Shown piece after piece: positions 11,032 through 30,378 of a DNA stretch of 64,000 nucleotides (positions are counted from its first letter, which is position 1; each line of letters starts with the position of its first letter). The DNA lies in the NCBI GenBank assembly GCA_041615815.1, contig JBFJCP010000010.1, forward strand, positions 2,856 through 66,855, given 5' to 3'. The notes under the pieces were generated by a model. That model was not told the origin of the DNA. It saw only the letters and a program-made list of their open reading frames with translations, and did no database searches. Source of the DNA: Gemmatimonadales bacterium. Its GTDB lineage: Bacteria; Gemmatimonadota; Gemmatimonadetes; Gemmatimonadales; GWC2-71-9. The position numbers and the translations under genes were made by a program.

Positions 11032-11068
11032 CCAGCGCTTCGCGGGAAGCGATTCGATAGGCTTCGTC

Positions 11069-12880: not shown

Positions 12881-12882
12881 CG

Positions 12883-13464: not shown

Positions 13465-13471
13465 CGAGCGA

Positions 13472-13786: not shown

Positions 13787-13807
13787 CCCGGCTTCCGACA
13801 GGAAACG

Positions 13808-13840
13808 AAGGGGCGCCCAGTTTTGTCCTGGGCGCCCCTT
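13808..13840. terminator. bidirectional intrinsic-terminator-like hairpin between convergent genes
   Basis: Perfect 13-bp stem AAGGGGCGCCCAG / CTGGGCGCCCCTT with loop TTTTGTC, lying between the + stop at 13786 and the - stop at 13865. Confidence 0.6.
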
Positions 13841-13864
13841 CGCGTTCTCGGTTACACGACCGCC

Positions 13865-14425
13865 CTACGGCGCCGGCCTTTTGGGGCCGTCGGCGTGCTC
13901 CCCAGCGGGTTCGTCGATCGGCTCGCCGAGGGGGTGACGCGTGAGCTCCTCCCGCAGCTTGGGGTGCTTTTGCCAGAGGAAGTATCCCATTCCGAGGGCG
14001 GCGATCGCGTTTCCAATGGCGACGTTCCACCAGGCCAGGGCTCCGAGTAACGGTTGGGCCATGACCGCCACCACGACGTAGAATCCGAATTCGAAAATGG
14101 CGAAGAACACGACCACGATGAACAGGGTCGACGGAAAGAGCTCGACTTCGTAGGCCAGCGCGGCGGCGATCACGCCGACGATGAGGAAGGCCACGACGTG
14201 CACCATGGTGTACCCGACCACGGCCGCGAAAATCCGCTCCGGGTCCGTGGCGAAGAGGCTTTGGACTTGTGCCGGGTCGAGTTCACCCCAGAACACCGCC
14301 GATCCGAGCATGGCCGGCGTGAAGAAGGGCTGCCCGTTGATGGCGTCAACGACCAGAAACCAGAGTGCGACGGCGCCCGCTCCGATCAGACCGGCAACGA
14401 ACCCTTCGCGGACGATGCGCTGCAT
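13865..14425 (-). CDS. hypothetical integral membrane protein (186 aa)
   Basis: ORF 13865..15289 trimmed to ATG 14425 (MQRIVREGFVAGLIGAGAVALWFLV...). About four TM segments. The upstream 288 codons are Arg/Pro/His-rich and overlap + strand genes. Confidence 0.6.
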   Translation of the reverse strand: MQRIVREGFVAGLIGAGAVALWFLVVDAINGQPFFTPAMLGSAVFWGELDPAQVQSLFATDPERIFAAVVGYTMVHVVAFLIVGVIAAALAYEVELFPSTLFIVVVFFAIFEFGFYVVVAVMAQPLLGALAWWNVAIGNAIAALGMGYFLWQKHPKLREELTRHPLGEPIDEPAGEHADGPKRPAP

Positions 14426-14545
14426 CTGTCCTCCTCTTGTCGGCAGGCGGGATGCTCGATCAGAGGTTTTCAATATAGGAGTTCTGGACGGGACCGCGAG
14501 GGCAGCATTGCGAGGTCGCCACCGTCCCCTGCATCTTCCCCTCTC

Positions 14546-14908
14546 ATGCGTGCACAAAAGTTTCGGCAGGCAGCCCTTGCGTACCTCCACGTAGGGATTC
14601 TGTACGAAGGTGCGGCCTTCGCGATGTGGAGACGTGGGCTGCTCCCGGCCGATCGCGGTCCAGTCTGGCTCTGGATGTTGTTGGGGGCGGGCATCGTGGC
14701 CGCGGTGGTCTGGGGGCTCTGGAAATGGCAAAACGTTTGGTTCGCACGCATCGTGTGGTTCATCCATGCCGCTCGGGTGCCGACGCTCATTGCCAGCGCC
14801 TTCTTCCCCGCGGTAGACCAGCGTCTGCCGCCCACGTTTTACGGAACCGCATTGCTTGTGGTGGTCATCAACCTCTGGATGTTGGCGCGGGCGGGATGGG
14901 ACGTGTAA
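14546..14908 (+). CDS. hypothetical small membrane protein (120 aa)
   Basis: ORF 14054..14908 trimmed to ATG 14546 (MRAQKFRQAALAYLHVGILYEG...). Three hydrophobic segments. A pyrimidine-rich leader cttcccctctc precedes the ATG. Confidence 0.5.
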   Translation: MRAQKFRQAALAYLHVGILYEGAAFAMWRRGLLPADRGPVWLWMLLGAGIVAAVVWGLWKWQNVWFARIVWFIHAARVPTLIASAFFPAVDQRLPPTFYGTALLVVVINLWMLARAGWDV

Positions 14909-14950
14909 AGGGCACAGGGTGGGAAGCAGAATGATGATTGCAGACTGCAC

Positions 14951-14964
14951 ATTGACGATTGACG
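14951..14964 (+). promoter_or_regulatory. tandem ATTGACG ATTGACG (two overlapping -35-like TTGACG boxes) upstream of the mrp-led cluster
   Basis: Read directly at cacATTGACGATTGACGcgcc, 26 nt before GTG 14990. No convincing -10 identified. Confidence 0.25.
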
Positions 14965-14989
14965 CGCCTTCTGCGCTCGGACGGGTCCA

Positions 14990-15850
14990 GTGACGCGACT
15001 CAGGAGCTACAGGGACGTCGCCGGAGACGATCGTTCGGCGATGCTCGCGCAAGTGCAAGCGCAGCGGGCGCGGGTGAGGTCCCGCCTTGCAGCGGTGTCT
15101 CGCGTGGTGGGTGTGATGAGCGGCAAGGGTGGGGTGGGGAAGAGCTACGTGACGTCGGGTCTCGCCATTGCGGCGCAGCAGACGCGGGGCTGGACGGTTG
15201 GCGTGCTCGACGCGGATCTCCATGGACCCACCGTGGCACGACTTCTCGATGCCACAGGCCCCGTGAGGGTGAAGGGCGACGTGGTGCACCCAGCGGTGGG
15301 GCGCTCGGGGATCGCGGTTTTTTCGATGGATCTGTTATTGGCGGACGAGGCTCCGCTGCGCTGGCGGGACACCAGCGCGGAGCACGCCGTCTCCCGGGGC
15401 TTGCTGGAAGCCGGAGCCTTGCGAGAGTTCCTCGGTGATGTTGCCTGGGGGGAGTTGGATCTGCTCCTCGTGGATCTCCCTCCGGGGACGGCGTCGCTCA
15501 CCGACCTTGCGGGTTTGACGTCCCACCTGACTGGGGTTCTCGCCATCACGATCCCCAGCGAAGAGTCTCGACGCGCAGTAGCGCGGGCTCTCACGGCCGC
15601 CGCATCCTCCGGCGTCCGCGTTTTGGGGATCGTCGAGAACATGAGCGAGTACGTCTGCGGCGAGTGTGGCGCGCGCCAGGAGCTCTTTTCGGGTCAGGCT
15701 GGATCGCGGCTCGCGGAATCCACGGGCGCTCCGCTCATCGGGCGGATTCCCTTTTTCCCGGGCCTGCCGGATCAACGTGCCGAATCTCGACCCGTCCCAC
15801 CGCTTCCTGAGGATGTGGTCGCGCGGTTCTTCGAGGTGATCGAACGATGA
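14990..15850 (+). CDS. apbC: Mrp/NBP35 (ApbC) family Fe-S cluster carrier ATPase
   Basis: Deviant Walker A VMSGKGGVGKSYVTSGLA. LLLVDLPPGT. C-terminal CGECG cysteine pair typical of Mrp/ApbC. GTG start; ATG at codon 18 is an alternative. Confidence 0.85.
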   Translation: MTRLRSYRDVAGDDRSAMLAQVQAQRARVRSRLAAVSRVVGVMSGKGGVGKSYVTSGLAIAAQQTRGWTVGVLDADLHGPTVARLLDATGPVRVKGDVVHPAVGRSGIAVFSMDLLLADEAPLRWRDTSAEHAVSRGLLEAGALREFLGDVAWGELDLLLVDLPPGTASLTDLAGLTSHLTGVLAITIPSEESRRAVARALTAAASSGVRVLGIVENMSEYVCGECGARQELFSGQAGSRLAESTGAPLIGRIPFFPGLPDQRAESRPVPPLPEDVVARFFEVIER

Positions 15851-16302
15851 AGTTTCTATGTTTGGACTGCGACACGCAGATGGCGTTCGATGAGCGGAAT
15901 GTCCCGGGTGATGGCACATTTGCGGCAGCGTTCTCCTGCCCCACGTGCGGTCGGAAGATTGCCATGCTCGCCAACCCCATGGAGACGCAATTGGTGGACG
16001 CACTGGGTGTGCAGATCGGCGGCCGCACGTTGCGCGACCAGCCGTTGGAGCTCGTCCGCGGCAAGTTGGAGGGGCGGGACGATGCGTTCGTGGAGGACGG
16101 CGCCGAGCGGGCGGATGGACCCCCGGACGGGCGTCCCCTCTGGAGCGCGGAAGCCGACGAGCGGCTCGGACGTGTGCCCAGTTTCGTTCGGGGCATGGTG
16201 AAAAAGATCTACACCGAGTATGCGCTGGAACGCGGCATTGGGGAGATCACGCCGGCCGTCATGGACCGTGCACGCGTGGAGCTCGGGCTGGAGGGTATGT
16301 AG
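15847..16302 (+). CDS. Zn-ribbon (CxxC...CxxC) protein with C-terminal PCP_red-like domain
   Basis: ATGA overlap with mrp. N-terminus MKFLCLDCDTQ...FSCPTCGRK has two CxxC pairs. The C-terminus PLWSAEADERLGRVPSFVRGMVKKIYTEYALERGIGEITPAVMDRARVEL matches the fold motif of the BchB/ChlB C-terminal (PCP_red) family. Confidence 0.7.
   Translation: MKFLCLDCDTQMAFDERNVPGDGTFAAAFSCPTCGRKIAMLANPMETQLVDALGVQIGGRTLRDQPLELVRGKLEGRDDAFVEDGAERADGPPDGRPLWSAEADERLGRVPSFVRGMVKKIYTEYALERGIGEITPAVMDRARVELGLEGM
16135..16284 (+). other. PCP_red-like motif copy 1
   Basis: PLWSAEADERLGRVPSFVRGMVKKIYTEYALERGIGEITPAVMDRARVEL. Confidence 0.65.
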
Positions 16303-16545
16303 GTGAGCGACGGGGAAGAGCGACGCGTGTGGGATCTCCGGATCCGGATCGATCGGACGTTGTGTGTGGGCTTCGGCGACTGTCTGGAGGATGCCCCAGA
16401 GGCATTCTGCCTCGACGCGGAGGGGATCGCCATTTTCGCGACCCCAGAGGCGGTGGAGCGCGCGCGACTGTTGCGGGCCTGTGAGGCCTGCCCCGTGGAC
16501 GCTCTCACCGTGTGGGATGCCGCGGGCACGCAGCTGGTCCCTTGA
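16303..16545 (+). CDS. single-cluster ferredoxin (3Fe-4S/4Fe-4S type)
   Basis: GTG start directly abuts the upstream TAG. CVGFGDC...ACEACPVDAL matches the CxxxxxC...CP pattern of small Fer4_13/15-type ferredoxins. Confidence 0.75.
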   Translation: MSDGEERRVWDLRIRIDRTLCVGFGDCLEDAPEAFCLDAEGIAIFATPEAVERARLLRACEACPVDALTVWDAAGTQLVP

Positions 16546-16570
16546 CACGGGTAGCGGCAAGTCTCATACT
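16542..16570 (+). promoter_or_regulatory. sigma70-like internal promoter candidate (TTGACA-17-CATACT)
   Basis: Perfect -35 TTGACA (16542-16547) overlaps the ferredoxin stop. A 17-nt spacer and -10 CATACT (16565-16570) follow. This would give a ~140-nt leader before the USP gene. Confidence 0.3.
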
Positions 16571-16718
16571 CGCCACCGAGGTCGGCGTTGCGCGTACATT
16601 GCACTCGGCGCAGTGGTGCGCGGGATCACGCGGGGCCCTCCAGCGCCGTCGTCCAGTGATACAGCTGTACAAATCCTAGTTGGCCACCCGAACGACCAGC
16701 CTGGCCGGAGGCGGAGCC

Positions 16719-18707
16719 GTGCATCCTCTGTATAGGGAAGTGTTCGTCCCCGTGGACAATTCCCAGCATTCGGATTGGGCTGTCGAGCGTGCCATCGAGC
16801 TGTGCCGCCAGTCGGGCGGTCGGATCACCGGCAACCACGTATACGCCGCCCGCCTGCACGACGTTCGATTTCGCCAGCTCGAGACGGGATTGCCCGCGCA
16901 GTTTCAGACCCCAGAAGAAATCAAGCGCCAACGCAAAGTGCATGACAAGCTGATCGAGAAGGGGTTGCAGCTCATCTCCGATTCGTTCCTCGATCAAGTG
17001 GAAAAGCGGTGTCAGGGTGCCGGCGTCTCCCTCCGCCGTCAGCTCTTGGAGGGCATCAACTACGAAGAGATCGTCAACGAAGTGAACAGTGGTGAGGGGA
17101 CCTTGCCGAGTCTCATCGGCTTCGATCCCAACATCGCGGCAAATTATGACGGTGGGGACAAGGTGCGGAGTGACGTGCGGCTCGGTGCAGACGGACGCAT
17201 CGTGGCGGAGGACGAGGAGTTGGATGAGAAACTCGCCGGGTCTTCGGGTCGTCGTTATGACCTCGTGGTGATCGGCGCTCATGGGATCGGTCGCCAACCG
17301 TATTCCCAATTGGGTGGTGTGGTGGCGCGCGCCATCCGGGGTATCGAAAAAGACGTGCTGCTGGTTCGGGACGATGCATCTCTCAGGGGGGGACGGTTCA
17401 TGGTGTGTGTAGACGGATCGTCCTACAGTTATAAGGCCATGCGAAGCGCGTTGGAGTTGGCGCAGGAGTTCGGGGCGTCGCTGTACGTGTGCAGCGCGTT
17501 CGACGTCGAGTACCATCACGCCGTTTTTCACAATATCAAAGACGTGCTGTCGGTCCGCGCGTCGAAAGTGTTCAAGTTCGAAGAGCAGGAAGAACTGCAC
17601 AACAACATCATCGACAAGGGGCTGCTGAAACTCAGTCAGGCGAACATCAAACGCGCAGAGGTCATGGCGCAGGAGTTTCCCGATGTTCCACTGAAGAGTC
17701 AGATTCTGATCGGCAAGCCGTTTCAGGTGATCTTGCAGTGGGCCGAGGAGATTCAGCCCACGTTGCTGATCTACGCTCGTCATGGGGCCCATCGCATCGA
17801 GGGCACCGATCTGGGATCGCAGGCGGACAACCTCGTGCGCTTGGCGTCGTGTAACACGCTCGTGGTGGGCACGGTGGGCGTCCGCCCGGAGGAGATTCCC
17901 TGGATCGAAGAGGACGGGGAGGCATCACTCCCGTGGGCGCCGGAAGCCGAGGTCCGCATCCAACGGGTGCCGCCGTTTGCGCAGGGGATCGCGCGCAAGG
18001 CCGTCGAGGAGTTCGTCATGGAGCACGGGAGCGACTTCGTGACGAACCAATGGCTCGATCAAGCCATCGCGAAGCTCCTGCCGACACACATGCAGCTCAT
18101 CATGGGGATTGGCACGGCGGAGGAGATGGCTCGGGCCGAGCTCAAGGCGCAAGAGCAGATGGCCAAGACGGAGGTCCGGGGGAGCGAGGCGGATACCGAG
18201 GCGGCGGGTGACACGGTCCAAGTGAAGTGTCCCGTGACAGGGCACATGACGGTCCGAGCGCGGACGGCGGCGGATCCCATGGTATGGACCGTCGAGGCGT
18301 TCGACCGGTTGAAAGCGGTTCCGCTCATCGCGCGCCCACTAGCCCGAAACACGGTGGAACGGTTTGGACGAGACCATGGCTTCTGGCGGATCACGACGTT
18401 GGTCATGGATGAGAACAAGCAGGCGATGATCGAGGCTGACGAGTTCGATGCCGAAACGATGATGGGAATGTTTCGCGAGCTTCGGGCCAAGCAGATCCGT
18501 GCAGAAGCCGAGGGCGGCGATGCCCTCTCGCCCGAGATGCGGCGGTTCATCGAGGAGGCGAAGGCGGCCGGCGTCACTCGGTGTCCCATCCGGGATATCG
18601 AGGAGAAGATGTCGGATTGCCCGGTGGATTTTCGCGTCGCAACACCGGAAGAGGCTCGCGCAGCGGTGGAGCGGTTCATGGTTGAAGGAGAGACGGAGAC
18701 CGACTGA
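16719..18707 (+). CDS. tandem universal stress protein (USP) domains fused to two PCP_red-like domains
   Basis: Longest ORF starts at TTG 16680. GTG 16719 is preferred because GGAGGCGGAG lies just upstream and VHPLYREVFVPVDNSQHS is a typical USP N-terminus. Second USP: RFMVCVDGSSYSYKAMRSALELA...ARHGAHRIEGTDLGSQADNLVRLASCNTLVV. Two PCP_red-like motifs and a Cys-containing tail follow. Confidence 0.75.
   Translation: MHPLYREVFVPVDNSQHSDWAVERAIELCRQSGGRITGNHVYAARLHDVRFRQLETGLPAQFQTPEEIKRQRKVHDKLIEKGLQLISDSFLDQVEKRCQGAGVSLRRQLLEGINYEEIVNEVNSGEGTLPSLIGFDPNIAANYDGGDKVRSDVRLGADGRIVAEDEELDEKLAGSSGRRYDLVVIGAHGIGRQPYSQLGGVVARAIRGIEKDVLLVRDDASLRGGRFMVCVDGSSYSYKAMRSALELAQEFGASLYVCSAFDVEYHHAVFHNIKDVLSVRASKVFKFEEQEELHNNIIDKGLLKLSQANIKRAEVMAQEFPDVPLKSQILIGKPFQVILQWAEEIQPTLLIYARHGAHRIEGTDLGSQADNLVRLASCNTLVVGTVGVRPEEIPWIEEDGEASLPWAPEAEVRIQRVPPFAQGIARKAVEEFVMEHGSDFVTNQWLDQAIAKLLPTHMQLIMGIGTAEEMARAELKAQEQMAKTEVRGSEADTEAAGDTVQVKCPVTGHMTVRARTAADPMVWTVEAFDRLKAVPLIARPLARNTVERFGRDHGFWRITTLVMDENKQAMIEADEFDAETMMGMFRELRAKQIRAEAEGGDALSPEMRRFIEEAKAAGVTRCPIRDIEEKMSDCPVDFRVATPEEARAAVERFMVEGETETD
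17928..18077 (+). other. PCP_red-like motif copy 2
   Basis: LPWAPEAEVRIQRVPPFAQGIARKAVEEFVMEHGSDFVTNQWLDQAIAKL. Confidence 0.6.
18279..18428 (+). other. PCP_red-like motif copy 3
   Basis: MVWTVEAFDRLKAVPLIARPLARNTVERFGRDHGFWRITTLVMDENKQAM. Confidence 0.6.
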
Positions 18708-18709
18708 CC

Positions 18710-20044
18710 GTGGCCACCTCGCTCGCCTTCCTCGGCGAAGCGCCGGCCTCGACCGATTCTCAGGCGACGTATGTGCCTCATGTCGTTGCCTGGAATCTCA
18801 CGCGACGGTGCAACCTGCAGTGCGCACACTGTTACATCGCTGCGGGACCCAGCGAGGTCGCTGCGGACGAATTGCGGACCGGCGAGTGCCTCCGGATTAC
18901 CGAAGAGATACTCGCCCTCAATCCCTCACCGATGTTCATTCTCTCCGGCGGCGAGCCGCTCCTGCGCGACGATCTCACGACGATTGCCGCGTTTGCTGCA
19001 GACCGTGGCGCCACCGTAGTGGTTGGGACCAACGGCACCCTGCTTACCAACCAGCGGATCGACGCGCTTCGACGAGCGGGTGTCCAAGGGGTTGCGGTGA
19101 GCGTAGAGTCCTTGGATTCCACATACCACGATCGATTCCGGCGCGGGCATGGGTCCCTCGAGGCGACACTCGCCGCCGTCGAGCGGCTGGGACAGTGTCG
19201 GCTCGACTTCGTGGTGCAAACGACCGTGACACGGGGGAACCGAGCTGAGCTGGCCCGGCTCGTCGAGTGGGCAGCCAATGTTGGTGCGGTATCGTTCAAC
19301 GCGTACTTCCTCGTCTCGACGGGGCGCGGAGCACGGATGAGCGATTTGAGCCCCGAGGAATACGAAACCTGTCTCGGCGAGCTGGTGGACTTACACGTGC
19401 GGTTCTTGGGGCAGATGATGGTGCGGGCCAAGTGCGCACCGCATTTCATGCGTCTCGTGCACCAACGAGTGCCGACCTCGCCCATCCTCCACTACGGGAC
19501 CCGCTGCCCCTGCGGTGCGCAGTACTGTCGGGTCACTCCGGACGGCAAGCTCACGGCCTGCCCGTACTTGCCGCTGCCCGTTGGCGATCTGCGGCAATCG
19601 TCGTTCGCCGCCGTTTGGCACCACGCCCCCTTGCTTCAGGCGTTACGATCACAGCCGCCGGGTGGCAAGTGCGGAGCGTGCGAGTACCGGGTGCTGTGTG
19701 GGGGCTGCCGGGCGCGCGCGTTCGCCACCACCGACGACTACCTGGCGGCCGATCCGTCGTGTGCGTACGAACCTTCTGGCGAGATCGCAGTCATCGAGCG
19801 CGCCCAACCCGTGACGTACGGCATGTTGGTGGACCGCGAACTGGTGTGGACCGCCGAGGCGCTCGACCGCATCCGCCGAGTCCCCTCGTTTGTTCGCGGT
19901 GTCGTGACAAAGCGCGTCGAGGACTACGCACGGCGGCGCGGGCTGGAGAAGGTCACCGGCGCGCTGCTCCAGGATGTCCGACGGGAAATGCCCGTAGACT
20001 TTTCGAAGCGCAAACCGTTCTTCCTACAGCGCGATGACGACTGA
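18710..20044 (+). CDS. radical SAM/SPASM enzyme (NirJ/AhbD-like) with C-terminal PCP_red-like domain
   Basis: WNLTRRCNLQCAHCY is the CxxxCxxC radical SAM cluster. LSGGEPLLRDD. SPASM cysteines CPCGAQYCRVTPDGKLTACPY and GKCGACEYRVLCGGCRARA, the latter being the tail motif I associate with tetrapyrrole-modifying NirJ/AhbC/AhbD enzymes. GTG start 2 nt after the upstream stop. Confidence 0.85.
   Translation: MATSLAFLGEAPASTDSQATYVPHVVAWNLTRRCNLQCAHCYIAAGPSEVAADELRTGECLRITEEILALNPSPMFILSGGEPLLRDDLTTIAAFAADRGATVVVGTNGTLLTNQRIDALRRAGVQGVAVSVESLDSTYHDRFRRGHGSLEATLAAVERLGQCRLDFVVQTTVTRGNRAELARLVEWAANVGAVSFNAYFLVSTGRGARMSDLSPEEYETCLGELVDLHVRFLGQMMVRAKCAPHFMRLVHQRVPTSPILHYGTRCPCGAQYCRVTPDGKLTACPYLPLPVGDLRQSSFAAVWHHAPLLQALRSQPPGGKCGACEYRVLCGGCRARAFATTDDYLAADPSCAYEPSGEIAVIERAQPVTYGMLVDRELVWTAEALDRIRRVPSFVRGVVTKRVEDYARRRGLEKVTGALLQDVRREMPVDFSKRKPFFLQRDDD
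19841..19990 (+). other. PCP_red-like motif copy 4
   Basis: LVWTAEALDRIRRVPSFVRGVVTKRVEDYARRRGLEKVTGALLQDVRREM. Confidence 0.65.
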
Positions 20045-21752
20045 ACTCCTAGCACTGCTCCAGGCTGCAGCCGACACGAGCGGGGCGTACGGCGAGTTTC
20101 CACTGATCGGGGCTCGGGCGGCCGTTTGGATCGCCGCTGAGGTGCATCTCATGTTCGCGGCCTTCGTTCTCGGTGTCCCGATGTTCGCCGTGATCACCGA
20201 ACTGATCGGCATCGTGGGCAAGGACCCGAAGTACGACAAGCTCTCGAAGGAATTTACGCGGCTGCTGGTGTTCGCCTACAGTGCGACGGCGTTGTGGGGA
20301 GCGGTCCTGGTGTTCTTTCTCACCACGCTCTACCCGGCGTTCTGGCGGCACATGGCTGAGATCTTTGGCTTGTCGATGTGGATCTACGTGGGACTGTTCT
20401 TCGTCGAGTCGTTCACGCTCTACCTCTACTATTATGGTTGGGACCGTTGGAAGGCGGGCCGGGCGAAGTGGGGACATTGGGGACTCGGTCTCCTCCTCAA
20501 TGTCTGGGGCACCACCGTCATGTTCATCGCGAACGGATGGTTGACCTACATGATGTCTCCACCGGAGGGGGTCACCGTGGCCGGGCTCCCCCCGGAGGTT
20601 TCCCTGTGGAATGCGATCGCCAATGCTACCTGGATGCCGATCAACATTCATCGGCTGATTGCGAACGCCGTCTTCGGGGGCACCATCGTGGCTGCCTACG
20701 CCGGCTATCGGTTCCTCGTGGCGAAGACGGACGAAGAACGTGCGCATTACGATTGGATGGGATACGTCGGCAACTTCATCGCGATCGCGACGTTCATCGT
20801 GCTTCCCTTTGCCGGGTACTGGTTGGGGCGGGAGATCTACGAATACAACCAGCAGATGGGAATCACGATGATGGGCGGCTTCATGAGTTGGCTGTGGATC
20901 GTGCAAGCGGTTCTGATCGGGGTGCTGTTCCTTGCCGCCAACTACTACCTCTGGTTGGGCATGCAACGGATTCCCGGTGCCGAGCGGTTCGTGCCGTACA
21001 CCAAGTGGATGCTGTTGGTTTTGGTTGTGTGTTGGTTGGTGTGGGCCACGCCGCACACCATGATTGCCAACCGCCAGGAACTGGCGGCCATGGGGGGATC
21101 GCATCACCCCTTCCTGAGCGTGCTGGGTGTGATGAGCGCCAAGAACACAGCCGTCAACCTCATGATCCTCACGACGTTCCTCTCGTTCTTGATGTACCGC
21201 CGGGCCAACAAGCTCCCCACCGTGTCGTGGGCGAAGACGGGAACGCTCATCGAGGCGGCCATGTTCGTGCTCGCCGCGGGTGTGGTGATATTCTACGGCA
21301 TCCTCGGATACTTCGTGGAGGCCATCGTGCGGATCGGATTCAGCGTGTACCAGGTGGGGGCCGTGCTCGCCTGCATCATCGGTGTGACGGCCATCGACAT
21401 AGCGCTCCTCCGAAGGGCTGGGTCCCGCGGCGAGATTCGATGGGGGCAGATGCCGGAGCGGGCTCAATACGCATTGTTCACCCTTGCGGTCACTTTTACC
21501 TGGCTCATGGCCCTCATGGGGTTCGCGCGAAGCGGCATTCGGCAGCACTGGCACGTGTGGGAGGTGATGCGAGATACGAGCGCCGCCGCGGCCACACCCG
21601 CGCTCGGGTATGCGGCCAACATGATCAGCGTATGCGTCCTCGTGTTCCTCAGTCTCGTGGCGTTCATCTTCTGGCTCGGTGGCTTGGCGGAACGCGCTAC
21701 CACGCGGACCCCCGAGCCCCAGCCGGTCCTGCGTCCAGCGGGGGCGGAGTGA
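20034..21752 (+). CDS. cytochrome bd subunit I (CydA)-like membrane haem protein, no CydB partner
   Basis: 11-nt overlap with the radical SAM gene. CydA-like landmarks: TM1 His (AAEVHLMFAAF), FFVESFTLYLYYYGWDRW (compare FLESTFVGLFFFGWDR), FIANGWLTYM (compare ANGWMQ), INIHRLIANAVFGG (position of the haem b558 His). Divergent C-terminal half, about 12 TM segments. No cydB-like gene anywhere in the window. Confidence 0.8.
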   Translation: MTTELLALLQAAADTSGAYGEFPLIGARAAVWIAAEVHLMFAAFVLGVPMFAVITELIGIVGKDPKYDKLSKEFTRLLVFAYSATALWGAVLVFFLTTLYPAFWRHMAEIFGLSMWIYVGLFFVESFTLYLYYYGWDRWKAGRAKWGHWGLGLLLNVWGTTVMFIANGWLTYMMSPPEGVTVAGLPPEVSLWNAIANATWMPINIHRLIANAVFGGTIVAAYAGYRFLVAKTDEERAHYDWMGYVGNFIAIATFIVLPFAGYWLGREIYEYNQQMGITMMGGFMSWLWIVQAVLIGVLFLAANYYLWLGMQRIPGAERFVPYTKWMLLVLVVCWLVWATPHTMIANRQELAAMGGSHHPFLSVLGVMSAKNTAVNLMILTTFLSFLMYRRANKLPTVSWAKTGTLIEAAMFVLAAGVVIFYGILGYFVEAIVRIGFSVYQVGAVLACIIGVTAIDIALLRRAGSRGEIRWGQMPERAQYALFTLAVTFTWLMALMGFARSGIRQHWHVWEVMRDTSAAAATPALGYAANMISVCVLVFLSLVAFIFWLGGLAERATTRTPEPQPVLRPAGAE

Positions 21753-21759
21753 GGCGATC

Positions 21760-22551
21760 ATGCTGATGACCAATCTGAAAGTCGTGGTCGTGGCGGTGGC
21801 AGTGATCGGCTTCTACACCATGGTGGCGCATATCATCCCACAGCTCGAGTCCGAGGTCCCCGAACAGTTGGATCTCGGCGCTGATGTGACCACCGAGGAG
21901 CTGGTGGCGGCGGGAGAACGCATCTATAACGGTGCGGGGGGATGCACCGCCTGCCACGGCCTCGGTACCAGAGCGCCCAATCTGCTGACCGATCACGCCG
22001 GTCAAGGCCAAATTGGGGCGCGGTGCGGTGGCCGGGAGTCTGGGAAGGACTGTAAGGCATACTTGCACGAATCGATGGTGGAACCGGGTACCTATGTCGT
22101 CGAAGGGTTCGGCAACATCATGCCGGACATGCGTCGCCAGCTCACCGACGATCAGATCTGGACGGTGGTGGCCTACCTCCAGTCGCTTGGCGGCGAAGTG
22201 ACTGTCACCGGCGCGGATGTCCAGGCAGCATCGAGCGGTAGTGAGGCAGGCGGACCGGCGACGGCGGCTGCGCCACGGTCGACCACGAGCGATCCCCGAC
22301 AGCTGCTCACCGAGCATGCGTGCCTCGGATGTCATGCCATCGACGGTCAGGGCCCACCCATCGGCCCCTCCTTCGATGGTATGGGATCGCGCATCTCGGC
22401 CGACCGGATCCGGCGGGGCATCCTCGATCCAAATGTCGAGGTGGCGGCGGGGTTCGACCAGTTCGCCGGGATGATGCCGGCGACCTTCGGCGATCAGCTA
22501 TCTGCGGGCCAGCTCGAAGCAATCGTCCAATTCCTGGTGGCTCGGAAATGA
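21760..22551 (+). CDS. membrane-anchored dihaem cytochrome c
   Basis: ORF trimmed to ATG 21760 (MLMTNLKVVVVAVAVIGFYTMV is the TM anchor), with GAGG 7 nt upstream. Two CxxCH motifs: CTACH and CLGCH. Confidence 0.85.
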   Translation: MLMTNLKVVVVAVAVIGFYTMVAHIIPQLESEVPEQLDLGADVTTEELVAAGERIYNGAGGCTACHGLGTRAPNLLTDHAGQGQIGARCGGRESGKDCKAYLHESMVEPGTYVVEGFGNIMPDMRRQLTDDQIWTVVAYLQSLGGEVTVTGADVQAASSGSEAGGPATAAAPRSTTSDPRQLLTEHACLGCHAIDGQGPPIGPSFDGMGSRISADRIRRGILDPNVEVAAGFDQFAGMMPATFGDQLSAGQLEAIVQFLVARK

Positions 22552-23363
22552 GTGGGAAGATCGGTACCGTCCTGCGCCACCCGTTTTGGCAGGCCATCCT
22601 GCTGCTGGTTCTGGCATATGTCGTCTTCAAATACGGTATCGCGTATCTACCGCCGTTGTTCGGGATCGCCAGCGCGCCCGTGCCCAACAGTGTGCTCATC
22701 CAATTCATGCTGACGGCGCTCGTCGGGATCCTGATCTACGTCAGTGACAACGATGAGAAGTGGCGGAAGTTCAAGGAGCCCATCGTCGCGACGATGATCG
22801 ACACCGACAAGCGATGGCTTCGGGGCGGCCTATTGGTTCTGATCCCCGTCCTCGTGGGCTTCGTGACGTACGATCAGGCGCGGCCCAAGGTGTCGGCACC
22901 GGTCCAACTCCGTTCCATCCACCCGGCGCCGCCAAGCCAGATCACCTTCCGCGGTCAGCCGATGCAGCTCGCGGGATTGGAAAACCCGCTGCGCCGTTCG
23001 GGCCCGCTGGAGGAACACGCCCTCGAGGGACGGCGGGTCTACTATCAGAACTGTCTCGCGTGCCACGGCGATCTCCTGGATGGGGAGGGACACTACGCGC
23101 ATGGATTCAACCCCTTGCCGCTGGCGTTCGACGATCCCGGAACCATCGCGCAGCTCACCGAGAGCTTTGTGTTCTGGCGCATCGCCAAAGGCGGTCCCGG
23201 GCTCCCCCGCGAGGGAACCCCGTGGAATTCAGCCATGCCGGCCTGGGAGGACTTTCTGACAGAAGAGGAGATCTGGGCCGTCATCATCTTCCTGTACGAG
23301 CAGTCCGGATGGGAGCCCCGTACGTGGGAGGAAGCTGGGGAGGAAGGAGGCGCCCATGACTAG
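22548..23363 (+). CDS. polytopic membrane monohaem cytochrome c
   Basis: ATGA overlap with the upstream gene (MSGKIGTVLRHPFW...). Three TM segments precede a periplasmic domain with CLACH. Confidence 0.8.
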   Translation: MSGKIGTVLRHPFWQAILLLVLAYVVFKYGIAYLPPLFGIASAPVPNSVLIQFMLTALVGILIYVSDNDEKWRKFKEPIVATMIDTDKRWLRGGLLVLIPVLVGFVTYDQARPKVSAPVQLRSIHPAPPSQITFRGQPMQLAGLENPLRRSGPLEEHALEGRRVYYQNCLACHGDLLDGEGHYAHGFNPLPLAFDDPGTIAQLTESFVFWRIAKGGPGLPREGTPWNSAMPAWEDFLTEEEIWAVIIFLYEQSGWEPRTWEEAGEEGGAHD

Positions 23364-24936
23364 GGGGAATGGGAACGGCGGACGGTTGGAAGGGCTCCTG
23401 CTCGTCGTCGCTTTCTCCGGCTCATGGCTCTTTTATCCGGGCCCCCTGGTGGCTCAGGACCTGGAGCGCGGCAAAGTCGTGTACGACAAGTGGTGTGCGG
23501 GTTGCCATGGGGACGACGGCGCCGGACTGGGCGAGGCCGCGGCCTTCATGCTTCCCCGGCCGCGGGATTTCACTCGGGGTGACTACCAGATTCGCACGAC
23601 GGCCAGCGGGGAGCTTCCCACCGATGCCGACATCCGCCGAATGGTGGACGAAGGGATGCCCGGCAGCGCGATGCCGGGTTGGGAGCGGCGCTTGAGTGAG
23701 CAGGATCGCAACAACGTGGTGGCCTATATCAAGTCGTTTTCACGGTTCTTCGACGGAGCCGCACCGGAACCGGTCGATTTCGGGCGGGCGCCCCGGAGGA
23801 CGGATGAAGGGCTGGCAGAGGGCGAGCAAGTCTTCCGGGAGCTGGAGTGTTTCAAATGTCATGGAGATGCGGGACGTGGCGATGGACAATCTGCGCCTAC
23901 CCTCACCGATGACTGGGACTTCCCCATTCGCGCTGCGGACCTCACCAAGCCCTGGAACTTCAACGGTGGTGGCACGGCCGAACAGATCTTCCGCCGCTTC
24001 CGTACGGGGTTGAATGGGACCCCGATGCCGTCCTACAACGATGTTTTGGATGCCGGCATCGTGACCGAGGAGCAGTTGTGGCACCTCGCCCAATACGTTC
24101 GTTCGTTGGGGCCGGACGAGCCGACCCCGCGGATTCGGGACGTCGTGCGGGCGCAGCTGGCGGATGGAGCGCTCCCGTCGGGACCGGGAGACACGGCCTG
24201 GGCCGGTGTGGAGCAGTTTTACATTCCGCTCGTTGGGCAGATCATTGTGAAGCCGCGCTGGTTTGCACCCACGGTGGACGGACTCTGGGTGCAAGCCCTG
24301 CACGACGGCGATCAGCTAGCCATTCGCCTCACGTGGAGTGACCCGTCGGAGAGCCCCGACCCCGCGTGGCAAGAGTGGCTGGGGCGAGTCACGAGCACGA
24401 TGTCCGATGGGGACGGTGTGATGGCCGCCGAGCAGGGTGCCGATCGCGTGGTCGTGCAATTCCCGACCCGCCTGTCGGACGGGATGGAGCGGCCCTATTT
24501 TCTTGGGGGCTCGAACCGCAGCCCGGTCTACGTATGGCGCTGGACCAGCGATCCGGACCGGCTGGAGGAAGGTACGACCACCGGGCTTGGTGCCTTCGCG
24601 CCGCTGGCCGGCGGGACCGTTACCCATGCCGCGCGGCACGGTCAGGGGCAGTGGCAGATCCAACTGACGCGATCGCTCGTTCCGGCAGACTCGACGGTCC
24701 TGCGGTTCGACCGGGGCCAGCCCATCCCCGTGGCCTTCTTTGCCGCGGATGGCTCGAACGGGGAAGATTGGGTGCGTGGCTCCGTGAGTGCCTGGTATCA
24801 GATCTATCTCGATGTTCCCACCCCGGTTGCAGCGTATGTGGCGCCGATTGTGGCGATGCTCCTGACGGCTGCCTTGGGGATGGTCGTGATTGCGCGAGCT
24901 CAACAGCGCGGCCGACAGGCCGCCCAATCATCGTAG
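23356..24936 (+). CDS. dihaem cytochrome c fused to EB_dh (ethylbenzene-dehydrogenase gamma-like haem b) domain, C-terminal TM anchor
   Basis: 8-nt overlap with the upstream gene. CAGCH and CFKCH motifs. EB_dh-like region: LWVQALHDGDQLAIRLTWSD...VVVQFPTRLSDGMERPYFLGG...VYVWRW...PVAFFAADGSNGEDWVRGSVSAWYQIYL. C-terminal TM VAPIVAMLLTAALGMVVIA. Confidence 0.8.
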   Translation: MTRGNGNGGRLEGLLLVVAFSGSWLFYPGPLVAQDLERGKVVYDKWCAGCHGDDGAGLGEAAAFMLPRPRDFTRGDYQIRTTASGELPTDADIRRMVDEGMPGSAMPGWERRLSEQDRNNVVAYIKSFSRFFDGAAPEPVDFGRAPRRTDEGLAEGEQVFRELECFKCHGDAGRGDGQSAPTLTDDWDFPIRAADLTKPWNFNGGGTAEQIFRRFRTGLNGTPMPSYNDVLDAGIVTEEQLWHLAQYVRSLGPDEPTPRIRDVVRAQLADGALPSGPGDTAWAGVEQFYIPLVGQIIVKPRWFAPTVDGLWVQALHDGDQLAIRLTWSDPSESPDPAWQEWLGRVTSTMSDGDGVMAAEQGADRVVVQFPTRLSDGMERPYFLGGSNRSPVYVWRWTSDPDRLEEGTTTGLGAFAPLAGGTVTHAARHGQGQWQIQLTRSLVPADSTVLRFDRGQPIPVAFFAADGSNGEDWVRGSVSAWYQIYLDVPTPVAAYVAPIVAMLLTAALGMVVIARAQQRGRQAAQSS

Positions 24937-24945
24937 GGAGGAAGA

Positions 24946-25707
24946 ATGCGACGAGTACTCTTGTCGACGGTTTGTGTCCTGGTTGCGTGTGGTGGCGGTG
25001 AGCAGGCCGCCGATGGCGGTGGAGACGCGGCGGCGACTGCCATGGCCAGCGGACCGCGTGGTGATGGGGCCATTGCGGGGATGGTCATGTTCACTGGGAC
25101 GCCACCGGCGAACCCGACCATTGATATGTCCGAGGAGCCCGAGTGCGTGGCCAAGTACACTGGTTCACCAACCGATCCACGCGTGGTGGTCAGTAACGGC
25201 CATCTTGGCGGCGTGTTCGTCTATGTGAAGAGCGGGCTTCCGGCGGGAGCGAATTATACAGCGCCATCCTCACCGGTGATGCTGGATCAGGACGGCTGTC
25301 TGTACCACCCCCGTGTCTTTGGCGTCATGGCTGGCCAGCCCATCGAAATCAGCAACAGCGATCCCATGCTTCACAACATCAAGGCAGTCCCGGAGCAGAA
25401 CCGGGGGTTCAACATCAGCCAGCCTCGCGAGGGCATGACGACCACGCGGACGTTCAACACGCCCGAGGTCATGGTACCGTTTGAATGCAACGTTCACGGG
25501 TGGATGAACGCTTATGCGGGCGTCATGAGTCACCCCTTTTACGCAACGTCTGCGGAGAACGGATCCTTTTCGATTCAGGGGTTGCCTGCGGGGACCTACG
25601 AGCTCGAAGCGTGGCACGAGACGCTCGGGACCCAGACGCAGTCGGTCACGGTGCCCGAGACGGGGACCGTGAACGTCGAGTTCTCGTTCAGCGCATCGAC
25701 CTCGTAA
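24946..25707 (+). CDS. cupredoxin-like lipoprotein (putative type-1 Cu site) with carboxypeptidase-regulatory-like beta-sandwich
   Basis: Lipobox VLVACGG and RBS GGGAGGAAG. Candidate Cu ligands His143 (MLHNIK) plus C181-x2-H184-x2-M187 (FECNVHGWMNAY). C-terminal GSFSIQGLPAGTYELEAWHETLG. Confidence 0.65.
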   Translation: MRRVLLSTVCVLVACGGGEQAADGGGDAAATAMASGPRGDGAIAGMVMFTGTPPANPTIDMSEEPECVAKYTGSPTDPRVVVSNGHLGGVFVYVKSGLPAGANYTAPSSPVMLDQDGCLYHPRVFGVMAGQPIEISNSDPMLHNIKAVPEQNRGFNISQPREGMTTTRTFNTPEVMVPFECNVHGWMNAYAGVMSHPFYATSAENGSFSIQGLPAGTYELEAWHETLGTQTQSVTVPETGTVNVEFSFSASTS

Positions 25708-25722
25708 GGAGGCAAGGCCGTC

Positions 25723-26409
25723 ATGCCATATGACTGGGGACTCCCCATCGCGGCGTCGACCTTCGCGGCGGACATCGACCGACTCTACTACATGATCTTG
25801 GTGATTACGGGCATCGCCTTCGTCATCGTGGAGGTGGCGATCGTCTGGTTTCTCATCAAGTACCGAGCACGCCCTGGTCGCAAGGCCTATTATACCCACG
25901 GTAGCGCCAAGGCAGAGGTCATTTGGACGGCCGTGCCCGCGGTAGTCGTCGTCGGATTGGGTATTCTCAGCGCGTCCGTATGGAGTCACATTCGTGGGCG
26001 GGACAGCGTTCCCCCCAATGCGTTGCCGATTGCGCTCGAGGCCAAGCAATTCGAGTGGAACGCGACGTATCCTGGTGCCGACGGGGAGCTAGGCACCGGC
26101 GACGATTTCACGATGCGGAATCTGCTGCAGATTCCGGTCAATCAGCCCGTCGTGGTTCACCTCACCTCGGAGGACGTGATTCATTCCTTCTTCGTACCCG
26201 AGTTCCGTGTCAAGCACGATGCGGTGCCGGGTATGGAGGCCCGAGTGTGGTTCGAGGCCACGATGACCGGGGAGTTTTCCATCGCTTGCGCCGAACTGTG
26301 CGGCTTGGGGCACTACCGGATGGCTGCTCGGGTCGTGGTACAAGACCAGGCCGAGTACGATCAATGGTTGGCCGAACAGGCCGCGAACCAAACCGTAGCT
26401 TCGCGTTAG
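25723..26409 (+). CDS. coxB: cytochrome c oxidase subunit II (no fused cytochrome c domain)
   Basis: RBS AAGGAGG. Two N-terminal TM segments. CuA site HSFFVPEF...CAELCGLGHYRM. Confidence 0.9.
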   Translation: MPYDWGLPIAASTFAADIDRLYYMILVITGIAFVIVEVAIVWFLIKYRARPGRKAYYTHGSAKAEVIWTAVPAVVVVGLGILSASVWSHIRGRDSVPPNALPIALEAKQFEWNATYPGADGELGTGDDFTMRNLLQIPVNQPVVVHLTSEDVIHSFFVPEFRVKHDAVPGMEARVWFEATMTGEFSIACAELCGLGHYRMAARVVVQDQAEYDQWLAEQAANQTVASR

Positions 26410-26416
26410 AGGACTC

Positions 26417-28171
26417 ATGGCGACGACAGCAGCTGCCTTCGACCACGTAGCCCACGCGCACGCCGACACGCGGTCGTTCATTCGTCGATACATTTTCTCG
26501 ACGGATCACAAGATTATCGGGATCCAGTTCCTCATTATGAGTCTGTTCTTCCTCCTCGTGGGGGGAACGCTGGCGATCATGATGCGCTGGCAGCTGGGTT
26601 TCCCCGGCGAGGCGTTTCCGGGTGGCGGTGTGCTCCCGGAGACGATGGCACCGGACGGTGTGCTCTTGCCGGAGTTTTACAACTCACTGGTGACGATGCA
26701 CGGCACGTTCATGGTCTTTTTCGCGATCATGCCGCTGCTCGTGGGTGTGTACGCGAACTTCCTGATCCCGCTCAAGATCGGCGCACCAGACATGGCGTTC
26801 CCGCGCCTCAACATGGTTTCGTTTTGGGTCGCCATGCCGGCCGGATTGATCATGATGGCGGGGTTCCTGGTGGAGGGAGGTGCCGCCGGGGCCGGATGGA
26901 CCATGTACGCGCCGTTGAGTGCCAATCCGGAATACTCAGGGGTCAGCGGAGGGCAGATTCTCTGGTGTGTGAGTATCGCGGTGCTGGGCCTCTCATCGAT
27001 CCTCGGATCGACCAACTATATCACGACCATCATCAACATGCGGGCGCCGGGCATGACCTGGTTCCGCATGCCACTCAGTATCTGGTCGCTCTTCATCACG
27101 GCGATTCTGACCATTCTGGCCATCCCCATTCTCTCCGGGGCGGCCATCATGCTGTTGTTCGATCAGCTCATCGGTACCCATTTCTTTCTGCCGCCGGATG
27201 GGGGCCAGCCGCTCCTGTGGCAGCACCTGTTCTGGTTCTTCGGCCATCCGGAGGTCTACATCCTGATCCTACCGGCCATGGGGATGGTGTCTGATATCAT
27301 CGCGAACGGCTCGAGGAAGCCGATCTTCGGATATCACTCGATGGTCTATGCCATGATCGGTATCGGCTTCCTCGGATGGATCGTTTGGGGACATCACATG
27401 TTCCAGAGTGGGATGAACCCGACGCTGGGCATGTCCTTCATGATCTCGACGATGCTGATTGCCGTGCCCTCTGCCATCAAGACGTTCAACTGGTTGGGCA
27501 CAATGTGGAGGGGGAGTATCCGTTTCCACGTCCCGATGCTCAACGCGGTCGCGTTTGTCGCGATGTTCGTGATCGGCGGGCTGAGTGGGGTGTTCATGGC
27601 CTCCACGCCCGTGGACATCCAGATTCACGATACGTACTTCATCGTGGCGCACCTCCACTATGTGTTGTTCGGGGGGAGCCTGTTCGCACTGTTTGGCGCC
27701 ATCACGTTCTGGTATCCCAAGATGTTCGGGCGGATGATGAGCGAGTTTTGGGGGAAGGTGCATTTCGTGCTGACGTTCATCTTCTACAACCTCACGTTCT
27801 TTCCGATGCACCAGATTGGCTTGGGTGGCCACATGCGGCGGATCTACGATCCGACCGAATACGAGTTCTTGCTGCCGCTGCAGGGGCTCAACCGATTCAT
27901 CACGATCAGCGCGATCCTCCTGTTCGCCACACAAACCATCTTTGCGTTGAACTTCATCATTAGTTGGTTCAGGGGGAAGAAAGCACCTGACAATCCGTGG
28001 GAGGATACCGGCGTCGAGTGGAGTACTCCTTCGCCGGCACCCCATGGCAACTTCCCGACGACGCCAACGGTCCATCACGGACCGTACGAGTTCAGCTCAC
28101 CGCTCGTGGAGGAAGACTACTTGATGCAGGATCGTAGGGTCAGCAAACCCGCGACTCCGGCCGCCAGCTGA
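26417..28171 (+). CDS. coxA: cytochrome c oxidase subunit I (A-type), second copy
   Basis: LFWFFGHPEVYILILPAMG, GHHMFQSG and VAHLHYVLFGG. 584 aa. Confidence 0.95.
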   Translation: MATTAAAFDHVAHAHADTRSFIRRYIFSTDHKIIGIQFLIMSLFFLLVGGTLAIMMRWQLGFPGEAFPGGGVLPETMAPDGVLLPEFYNSLVTMHGTFMVFFAIMPLLVGVYANFLIPLKIGAPDMAFPRLNMVSFWVAMPAGLIMMAGFLVEGGAAGAGWTMYAPLSANPEYSGVSGGQILWCVSIAVLGLSSILGSTNYITTIINMRAPGMTWFRMPLSIWSLFITAILTILAIPILSGAAIMLLFDQLIGTHFFLPPDGGQPLLWQHLFWFFGHPEVYILILPAMGMVSDIIANGSRKPIFGYHSMVYAMIGIGFLGWIVWGHHMFQSGMNPTLGMSFMISTMLIAVPSAIKTFNWLGTMWRGSIRFHVPMLNAVAFVAMFVIGGLSGVFMASTPVDIQIHDTYFIVAHLHYVLFGGSLFALFGAITFWYPKMFGRMMSEFWGKVHFVLTFIFYNLTFFPMHQIGLGGHMRRIYDPTEYEFLLPLQGLNRFITISAILLFATQTIFALNFIISWFRGKKAPDNPWEDTGVEWSTPSPAPHGNFPTTPTVHHGPYEFSSPLVEEDYLMQDRRVSKPATPAAS

Positions 28172-28181
28172 GGGAGGAGCG

Positions 28182-28862: not shown

Positions 28863-28880
28863 AACGAGCGGGGTCGAAAG

Positions 28881-30216: not shown

Positions 30217-30239
30217 ACGGCGACGCAGTTTCCGGTGCC

Positions 30240-30350: not shown

Positions 30351-30378
30351 CGGAGTGAAGTAGCTGCAAGGACGGACG

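Follow-up and report, generated by a model that had tools for sequence, protein, structure and literature searches.

In this study, we describe a radical SAM/SPASM gene and its surroundings in a 64,000-nucleotide stretch of DNA (hereafter the window, meaning this stretch at its full length) from a Gemmatimonadales bacterium, contig JBFJCP010000010.1. The encoded enzyme is assigned, on its sequence, to the AhbD/NirJ2 clade of radical SAM proteins and carries a C-terminal PCP_red domain. Its gene is followed directly by one for a CydA-like membrane protein and is preceded by genes for an Mrp-type Fe-S carrier, a small Zn-ribbon-like protein with a PCP_red domain, a ferredoxin and a protein with tandem USP domains and two PCP_red domains, and comparison of loci indicates that these four genes and the radical SAM gene form one conserved cassette (Table 1). 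The reading that we tentatively favour is that an AhbD-type, oxygen-independent haem enzyme within a PCP_red cassette serves the respiratory module encoded with it. The window has a G+C content of 63%, and its nearest relatives are Gemmatimonadales metagenome-assembled genomes (MAGs).

Pfam searches with the 444-residue product of the radical SAM open reading frame (ORF) returned Radical_SAM (86 bits), SPASM (32.7 bits) and PCP_red (47.7 bits, residues 380-423). A first-pass annotation, made from the DNA letters and ORF translations, had pointed to the stretch CNLQCAHC and to SPASM cysteines in this ORF, and both sequence and Pfam bear these out. CNLQCAHC corresponds to C34-x3-C38-x2-C41, a CX3CX2C motif that was invariant in the alignment of family members, and C321, C324, C330 and C333 lie in the SPASM stretch GKCGACEYRVLCGGCRARA. 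Together with C351, the latter four residues reproduce exactly the auxiliary-cluster motif of AhbD, CX2CX5CX2CX17C, whereas the motif of NirJ is CX2CX5CX20-21C (PMC10114771); the enzyme is therefore AhbD-like rather than NirJ-like. Eight cysteines beyond the SAM motif were invariant over 20 diverse family members and would be enough for two auxiliary clusters, as is reported for AhbD. The cysteine-rich tail GxCxxCxxxxxCGGCRARA, which had been called typical of the tetrapyrrole group, turned out not to be diagnostic, since the peptide modifier PqqE has C..C......GGCRCQA....DP.C.

Ranking against 74 NCBIfam families placed AhbD first (289.6 bits), with positions 1-339 of the 339-position profile covered, followed by NirJ2 (285), TIGR04053 (242), TIGR04347 (177), NirJ (176), AhbC (153) and NirJ1 (147). 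The named models in these top seven are all tetrapyrrole enzymes and lie above every peptide maturase, of which the models reached at most 143 bits (GeoRSP 143 against a cut-off of 400, MftC 126 against 265, PqqE 99 against 381). This order upholds the earlier placement of the protein in the tetrapyrrole-modifying radical SAM clade. The NirJ model (TIGR04051) matched in two separate stretches, at 176 bits against a cut-off of 515, the motif differs as described above, and no nir genes were found in the 64-kb window. Some family members carry the JGI annotation 'AdoMet-dependent heme synthase'. Use of the NCBIfam cut-offs as a membership test was abandoned as too strict, as the nearest unfused AhbD-like representatives fail them as well.

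The AlphaFold2 model of the enzyme, of high confidence throughout the PCP_red tail as well (pLDDT 90.1, pTM 0.88), showed a SPASM fold with a three-helix PCP_red tail. Its neighbours in the PDB, searched by Foldseek and by sequence, were the generic SPASM enzymes SkfB, PqqE, SuiB and anSME, and structures of AhbD, AhbC or NirJ were not among the matches. All of these nearest solved structures are peptide or protein modifiers, which would suit an enzyme like PqqE, MftC, SkfB, anSME or QhpD that introduces a cross-link or a modified residue into a partner, be it the Zn-ribbon-PCP_red protein, the USP-PCP_red protein or a subunit of the complex, with PCP_red as the substrate-recognition element. 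The C-terminal cysteine tail is shared with PqqE, and PCP_red recurs on small partner proteins as do recognition domains and substrates in systems for ribosomally synthesised and post-translationally modified peptides. The structural result is, however, biased by the lack of AhbD, AhbC and NirJ among the PDB matches, the curated peptide-maturase models score no higher than 143 bits against 290 for AhbD, and no short precursor-like ORF was noticed beside the gene, although no systematic search was made. We consider protein or peptide modification very unlikely.

The PCP_red tail had been absent from the first-pass annotation, as had the copies of this domain in two of the upstream proteins. All three proteins exceed the Pfam gathering score of 32.5 for PF08369, with 47.7 bits for the radical SAM enzyme, 53.1 bits for the Zn-ribbon-like protein and 65.6 bits for the two copies of the USP protein. 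PCP_red is the C-terminal domain of BchB/ChlB of the dark-operative protochlorophyllide reductase (DPOR). The tail matched ChlB (2xdq_B) with a whole-sequence E of 2.7e-6, at which no single stretch was significant, and the ChlB stretch concerned is 451-503 of 511 residues. The domain is what the two proteins have in common, whereas the nitrogenase-like core of BchB/ChlB is absent here.

A scan of 1.84 billion protein representatives was used for delimiting the family. Near-full-length matches above approximately 296 bits all carry one to four PCP_red domains, with the exception of P0243 (446 bits) and P0267 (317 bits), and unfused AhbD-like proteins otherwise begin at approximately 284 bits. 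The fused and unfused groups separate in a neighbour-joining tree, which is distance-based and midpoint-rooted and gives a coarse grouping only, and the members adjacent to CydA-like genes fall into three separate subclades of this tree. Among GTDB species genomes the fused family was found in at least eight phyla, namely Gemmatimonadota, Acidobacteriota (Vicinamibacterales and Thermoanaerobaculia), Poribacteria, Nitrospirota, Nitrospinota, anammox Planctomycetota, Methylomirabilota and Zetaproteobacteria. As judged from these comparisons, the family is an architecturally distinct and widespread AhbD-like branch. A further set of AhbD-like proteins without PCP_red (P0283, P0285, P0297, P0301, P0302, P0318, P0339, P0358 and P0387) have lengths of approximately 660-765 residues and bear another large extension. 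In a Zetaproteobacteria MAG (L068, 1397-2353, forward strand) the radical SAM gene is followed by one for a 318-residue protein consisting of three PCP_red domains (Pfam 144 bits), and in a Nitrospirae MAG (L060, 4300-4992, reverse strand) the PCP_red gene group contains an iron-containing redox enzyme of the Haem_oxygenas_2 / TENA / PQQC family.

The presence of an Mrp-type Fe-S carrier and a ferredoxin just upstream, noted earlier, is supported by Pfam. The Mrp protein scores 179 bits on MrpORP and 126 bits on ApbC, both below the respective NCBIfam cut-off, and synteny between its gene and the radical SAM gene holds in 25 of the 33 Gemmatimonadota loci and 12 of the 18 Poribacteria loci. 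The Zn-ribbon-PCP_red gene, which overlaps the Mrp stop codon by 4 nucleotides, is a partner kept in both Gemmatimonadota and Poribacteria; the ferredoxin gene is kept in the Gemmatimonadota loci, and its product is probably the reductant of the radical SAM cluster. The USP-PCP_red ORF is open from 16680, and the start called in the identical contig L001 corresponds to 16719.

The protein encoded directly downstream matches Pfam Cyt_bd_oxida_I with 78.7 bits over residues 27-279, in its N-terminal half only. It has approximately 13-14 transmembrane helices by hydropathy, no CydB partner and no match to the quinol-binding Q-loop. His38 aligns with His21 of Geobacillus thermodenitrificans CydA, the equivalent of His19, the position of Glu99 is taken by Tyr118, and the equivalent of Glu107 is kept as Glu125. 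In Table S6 of Murali et al. the OR-N2 row likewise has Glu99 replaced by Tyr and Glu107 kept, and the OR-N2 operon is described by these authors as containing several cytochromes c plus an EbdC homologue. On ligand residues, number of transmembrane helices and operon content, the CydA-like protein thus appears to be of the OR-N2 type. Six of its histidines (H38, H148, H206, H238, H358 and H507) do not vary in the four phyla compared, which range from Gemmatimonadota to anammox bacteria. None of the haem ligands of canonical CydA corresponds to three of them, H238, H358 and H507. It follows that the protein does not simply have the cofactors of CydA, and these three residues could bind a further haem or copper.

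The genes from Mrp to a haem O synthase-like gene (14990-30031) form an array of 16 genes on one strand, approximately 15 kb long, in which all junctions are overlaps or gaps of at most about 16 nucleotides, except that between the ferredoxin and USP genes. The first-pass annotation had the stop codon of the radical SAM gene inside the CydA-like ORF, with an overlap of 11 nucleotides (ATGACGACTGA), and the ORF coordinates agree with this; the ATG at 20034 is the earliest start codon after the in-frame stop upstream of the CydA-like ORF. The overlap is also 11 nucleotides in L004 and L005. Of the ten other Gemmatimonadales species loci, nine have an overlap of about 4-14 nucleotides, an estimate based on starts projected by tblastn, and L014 has a 3-nucleotide gap in its place. 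In deeper Gemmatimonadota lineages, spacers of 40-640 nucleotides separate the two genes. The two genes may well be translationally coupled, as the arrangement of their ends suggests, and the overlap is not peculiar to this pair, because it is one of many tight junctions in the array. A promoter and terminator scan of 13400-30600 gave counts at or below the shuffled expectation, with nothing above chance inside the array; a promoter-like site matching 10/12 positions lies in the ferredoxin/USP gap. The sole convincing terminator-like site in the scanned region is a strong, G+C-rich hairpin of 16 bp with a T-run at 30389-30423, between the end of the respiratory array and a convergent HtrA-like protease gene.

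Linkage between the radical SAM gene and a CydA-like gene was examined in a forward neighbourhood survey of 80 species loci around the radical SAM gene. A CydA-like gene was near it in 31 of 33 Gemmatimonadota loci, including all 16 with at least 5 kb on both sides. Both Vicinamibacterales loci are linked with the order inverted (CydA, cytochrome c, cytochrome c, cytochrome c/EB_dh, radical SAM, USP-PCP_red), so that the USP-PCP_red gene comes after the radical SAM gene. Linkage was also found in two of three loci of Anammoxibacter and Scalindua, where the radical SAM gene is 4-10 kb from the OR-N2 operon, and in unclassified MAGs a CydA-like gene was within reach in one of three loci. The proposed link to the adjacent CydA-like protein stands in part: the synteny survives reordering in Gemmatimonadota, Vicinamibacterales and marine anammox bacteria, but is not exclusive, as Poribacteria, Nitrospinota and Nitrospirota demonstrate. 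No common target emerged from the neighbourhoods in Poribacteria, Nitrospina, Nitrospiraceae and Brocadia. Furthermore, synteny does not separate the CydA-like protein, as the client, from its constant partners, three cytochrome c subunits of which one is EbdC-like.

As in the window, where a cox operon lies upstream of the cassette, the cassette in Poribacteria sits after coxC-coxD-Sco1, genes of an aa3-type oxidase, and comprises genes for USP-PCP_red, Mrp, Zn-ribbon-PCP_red, a CopD-like protein with four transmembrane helices, the radical SAM enzyme and a small PCP_red protein. The Poribacteria loci (L040-L059) are of two kinds, 12 having the full cassette after coxCD-Sco1 and six having the radical SAM and small PCP_red genes only, which suggests two paralogues per genome. 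Genes of Uma2-family endonucleases are inserted within the cassette of L044. The four-helix protein, which has weak similarity to CopD / Urate_ox_N, is encoded right beside the radical SAM enzyme in 18 Poribacteria loci and one Nitrospirae MAG (examples are L044 9524-9982 and L060 1380-1826), and has no detectable homologue in the window.

A reverse survey was started from the anammox CydA-like proteins. The last gene of the OR-N2 operon encodes a USP+PCP_red protein in all three anammox lineages examined (Kuenenia, Brocadiaceae and Scalindua-like), and on a Scalindua-like contig of 2.3 Mb the radical SAM-PCP_red gene lies 9.6 kb upstream of the operon. From their gene order, PCP_red proteins appear as fixed companions of the OR-N2 operon in three phyla, with the radical SAM member adjacent in a subset. 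Every phylum with the fused family is OR-N-positive in Table S3 of Murali et al., which has 27 such phyla in all. In two Brocadiaceae loci (L085 11254-15575 and L086 10500-14821) genes for EB_dh (NxrC-like), 4Fe-4S (NxrB-like) and Nitrate_red_del (NarJ-like) proteins come directly after the OR-N2 operon, of which USP+PCP_red is the last gene. As the operon lies directly before NxrC-, NxrB- and NarJ-like genes, the module is part of the anammox nxr cluster. It is unlikely that it functions as an oxygen reductase in the anaerobic anammox bacteria.

Under the reading that we favour, the enzyme, as the catalytic member of the cassette, would be a haem b synthase-like decarboxylase of tetrapyrrole propionates, of the AhbD type and independent of oxygen, to which a PCP_red domain has been added at the C-terminus, and the cassette would supply or hand over a haem cofactor during assembly of the co-transcribed respiratory module, consisting of the OR-N2 bd-like CydA protein with three cytochrome c subunits (one EbdC-like) and probably including the flanking haem-copper oxidases. 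Mrp would load three [4Fe-4S] clusters and the ferredoxin would reduce the SAM cluster. The 5'-deoxyadenosyl radical would then attack an iron tetrapyrrole, most likely coproheme, by taking a hydrogen from one of its propionate side chains, and oxidative decarboxylation would yield vinyl groups, the electron being removed by the two SPASM clusters. The shared PCP_red domains may dock the cassette proteins on one another or on the apo-complex. Domain content, motifs, family ranking and conserved synteny were observed directly. The decarboxylation chemistry is predicted by homology; which substrate is used, that the product is most likely ordinary haem b, what Mrp, ferredoxin and PCP_red do, and that the cassette is dedicated to the complex are inferred. 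An oxygen-independent enzyme fits, because the anammox bacteria are anaerobes.

Several observations weigh against this reading. The score on the AhbD equivalog model (TIGR04545), 289.6 bits, is far below the cut-off of 500, and all curated cut-offs are missed; catalytic equivalence to AhbD is therefore uncertain on the basis of sequence. Eight unfused metagenomic AhbD-like proteins, at 290-420 bits on AhbD or NirJ2, are likewise below cut-off. In the cryo-EM study of DPOR, the helix touching protochlorophyllide in trans is BchB 398-420 (Rhodobacter sphaeroides numbering). Set against the matched ChlB stretch 451-503, the substrate helix is apparently upstream of PCP_red, the two numberings being from different proteins. 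A tetrapyrrole-binding role for PCP_red is hypothetical, and so is any function assigned to the domain in DPOR itself. A CydA-like gene within 10 kb was found in none of 18 Poribacteria, 13 Nitrospinota, two Nitrospirota and two Brocadia loci, and in none of the single Zetaproteobacteria, Methylomirabilota and Thermoanaerobaculia (L038) loci. As many lineages are without a nearby CydA-like gene, dedication to the bd-like complex is not general. PCP_red had also been considered as a tetrapyrrole lid, a candidate that was dropped on account of the position of the substrate-contacting helix in DPOR.

The gene could instead have a housekeeping role, as the organism's oxygen-independent coproheme decarboxylase, an AhbD in a coproporphyrin- or sirohaem-dependent pathway providing haem b for the whole cell. 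Its location in a respiratory island would then only reflect that the complexes use most of the haem, as with the haem O synthase gene ending the cox operon. AhbD occurs in organisms without other Ahb enzymes and is thought to be an anaerobic substitute for ChdC (PMC13564367; PMC10114771). Ferrochelatases exist in Gemmatimonadetes, Nitrospirae and Planctomycetes, so that a coproheme route is possible. Such a role also agrees with the JGI label of some members and with the isolated position of the radical SAM gene in Nitrospinota, Nitrospirota and Brocadia, where oxidase genes are not linked to it. However, the linkage to OR-N2 persists through rearrangements in at least three phyla, and the OR-N2 operon contains the partner USP-PCP_red gene also when the radical SAM enzyme is encoded at another site. 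In the unfused AhbD-like representatives, neither the PCP_red tail nor the dedicated partner genes (Mrp, ferredoxin and PCP_red) turned up. The radical SAM gene was never beside hem or ahb genes in the loci scanned: none were present among the scanned neighbours in the Poribacteria, Nitrospina, Nitrospirota, Brocadia, Scalindua, Anammoxibacter, Vicinamibacterales and Zetaproteobacteria loci, and the 64-kb window has no hem or ahbABC genes, only the UbiA-type haem O synthase-like gene. We regard the housekeeping role as the main rival reading, possible but somewhat unlikely.

A stronger claim had been made in the first-pass annotation, that the enzyme may make or tailor the haem-type cofactor of the CydA-like protein. 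The AhbD-like class and the synteny sustain its haem part, while tailoring, as opposed to formation of ordinary haem b, found no support. Conversion of haem b or a precursor to a non-standard haem specific to the OR-N2 bd-like complex would be consistent with the position of the family as a branch of its own, whose scores fall well short of the cut-offs for AhbD and NirJ2, with the invariance of H238, H358 and H507 beyond the canonical counterparts, and with the uncharacterised cofactors of OR-N complexes, which have another residue in place of the Glu445-type ligand (Murali et al., Table S6). The clade relatives NirJ and AhbC, moreover, tailor tetrapyrrole side chains (PMC10114771). On the other side, there was no direct sign of an unusual haem, the motif and the ranking are nearest to a plain haem b synthase, and the Poribacteria cassette accompanies an ordinary aa3-type oxidase operon. 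We hold such a conversion to be improbable. The related proposal, that the PCP_red cassette is a dedicated oxygen-independent machine for making a non-standard haem and inserting it into OR-N2 complexes, with PCP_red as docking or hand-over module, likewise has a low probability; if it were true, both the bd-like module in the nxr cluster of anammox bacteria and the terminal oxidase that is putatively the main one in Nitrospira and Nitrospina would be among the clients.

Compared with known systems, the enzyme is most like AhbD (TIGR04545) and NirJ2 (TIGR04055), with which it shares the CX3CX2C motif and SPASM domain, an identical CX2CX5CX2CX17C motif and the best scores over the full 339- and 326-position profiles. 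It differs from them in its scores (290 and 285 bits against cut-offs of 500) and in approximately 90 additional C-terminal residues including PCP_red, and its activity is predicted. The gene also stands with Mrp, ferredoxin and PCP_red partners in a respiratory operon, and not with ahbABC or hem genes. NirJ, of haem d1 synthesis, and AhbC belong to the same radical SAM/SPASM clade acting on side chains of iron tetrapyrroles (PMC10114771), but the scores here are 176 of 515 bits for NirJ, 153 of 650 for AhbC and 147 of 650 for NirJ1, and no nir genes are nearby. HemW, a haem chaperone of radical SAM fold for NarI, is a precedent for haem delivery to a membrane respiratory enzyme (PMC10114771); it is of the HemN/CgdH family, unrelated in sequence to the SPASM enzyme described here and without PCP_red, so that the analogy is functional only. 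The OR-N2 complexes (Murali, Gennis and Hemp 2021), which include the NIDE0901-like 'bd-like oxidase' of Nitrospira, resemble the present module in ligands, in approximately 14 transmembrane helices and in the cytochrome c/EbdC operon, whereas the operon here is fused to a cox operon.

Murali et al. 2021 and later surveys of Nitrospinota and Nitrospirales contain no mention of a radical SAM or PCP_red gene, and our literature search found no paper linking a radical SAM or PCP_red gene to bd-like oxidases, or AhbD to anammox; for PCP_red (PF08369) itself it brought up no relevant work. The OR-N2 operon and AhbD are thus each known, and their association is undescribed in the literature found; new here is a branch of AhbD-like enzymes that combines a new domain fusion with accessory genes of its own and a location in a respiratory operon. 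In the nitrite oxidisers Nitrospira and Nitrospina, OR-N complexes are regarded as the principal terminal oxidases that oxidise cytochrome c, and they also occur in the anammox nxr cluster. To our knowledge, purification of an OR-N complex has not been reported, and neither the cofactors nor the reaction itself has been characterised. A conserved, co-encoded AhbD-like enzyme with its own Fe-S carrier, reductant and shared putative docking domain predicts which accessory genes have to be expressed alongside for a holo-complex to form, and makes the question of which haem is present in OR-N2 directly testable. In addition, PCP_red gains a context outside chlorophyll synthesis. The value of the locus lies mainly in being a testable lead into the uncharacterised OR-N enzymes.

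Table 1. Coordinates and supporting evidence for the cassette, the OR-N2-type genes and the flanking oxidase operons in the window
Feature	Position	Strand	Evidence
Upstream oxidase operon: coxB (cytochrome c fusion), coxA, coxC, coxD	9700-13786	+	Pfam
Mrp/NUBPL-type P-loop Fe-S carrier, first cassette gene	14990-15850	+	Pfam ParA/NUBPL 185 bits; CxxC motif 'CGEC'
Small Zn-ribbon-like + PCP_red (residues 99-143) protein	15847-16302	+	Pfam PCP_red 53.1 bits; cysteines 5, 8, 31, 34
Single-cluster 4Fe-4S ferredoxin	16303-16545	+	Pfam Fer4_13, Fer4_15, Fer4_19
Tandem USP domains + two PCP_red	16719-18707	+	Pfam Usp 111 bits (2 stretches), PCP_red 65.6 bits (2 stretches)
AhbD-like radical SAM/SPASM ORF with C-terminal PCP_red	18710-20044	+	GTG start, 444 residues, TGA stop 20042-20044
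CydA-like ORF	20034-21752	+	ATG 20034, 572 residues
Membrane-anchored dihaem cytochrome c	21757-22551	+	Two CxxCH, one N-terminal transmembrane helix, Pfam Cytochrom_C in 2 stretches
Membrane-bound monohaem cytochrome c	22554-23363	+	One CxxCH, 3-4 hydrophobic segments, Pfam Cytochrome_CBB3
Dihaem cytochrome c + EB_dh (EbdC/NxrC-like haem b) domain	23356-24936	+	Pfam Cytochrom_C x2, EB_dh 45 bits
Lipoprotein, CarboxypepD_reg-like beta-sandwich	24946-25707	+	Signal peptide ends ...LVAC
aa3-type coxB, coxA, coxC, coxD + UbiA-family haem O synthase-like gene	25723-30031	+	Pfam COX2, COX1, COX3, COX4_pro, UbiA

Of the genes downstream of the CydA-like gene, the cytochrome c/EB_dh fusion also matches NCBIfam DMSO_red_II_gam (83.5 bits) and ends in a C-terminal transmembrane helix. 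The lipoprotein encoded after it has His143 and Cys181-x2-His184-x2-Met187, resembling a type-1 (blue) copper site, and this arrangement of residues is a possible type-1 copper motif. In every anammox locus examined, on Kuenenia, Brocadiaceae and Scalindua-like contigs, the gene directly upstream of the CydA-like gene encodes a homologue of the lipoprotein, and a further homologue is encoded next to the radical SAM gene in Nitrospiraceae L052. The downstream cox operon is on the same strand as the array and contiguous with it.

The cassette and the OR-N2 genes lie between two complete aa3-type cox operons, an arrangement like that of ACIII-cox gene clusters. The upstream CoxB is fused to a cytochrome c (443 residues), and the downstream CoxB (228 residues) is unfused and comes after the OR-N2 cytochromes and the lipoprotein with the copper motif. 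Between coxD of the upstream operon and Mrp lie two small hydrophobic ORFs, at 13865-14425 (reverse strand, 186 residues) and 14546-14908 (forward strand, 120 residues), which are called as genes in the identical contig L001 and have no Pfam match recorded. Elsewhere in the window, two unrelated modules were observed: a phosphate-type ABC transporter (two ATPases, permease and PBP_like_2 binding protein) with a PAS/HAMP histidine kinase at 37653-44494, and a nucleoside salvage set (5'-nucleotidase, adenosine deaminase, Na+ nucleoside transporter and purine nucleoside phosphorylase) at 45159-51150.

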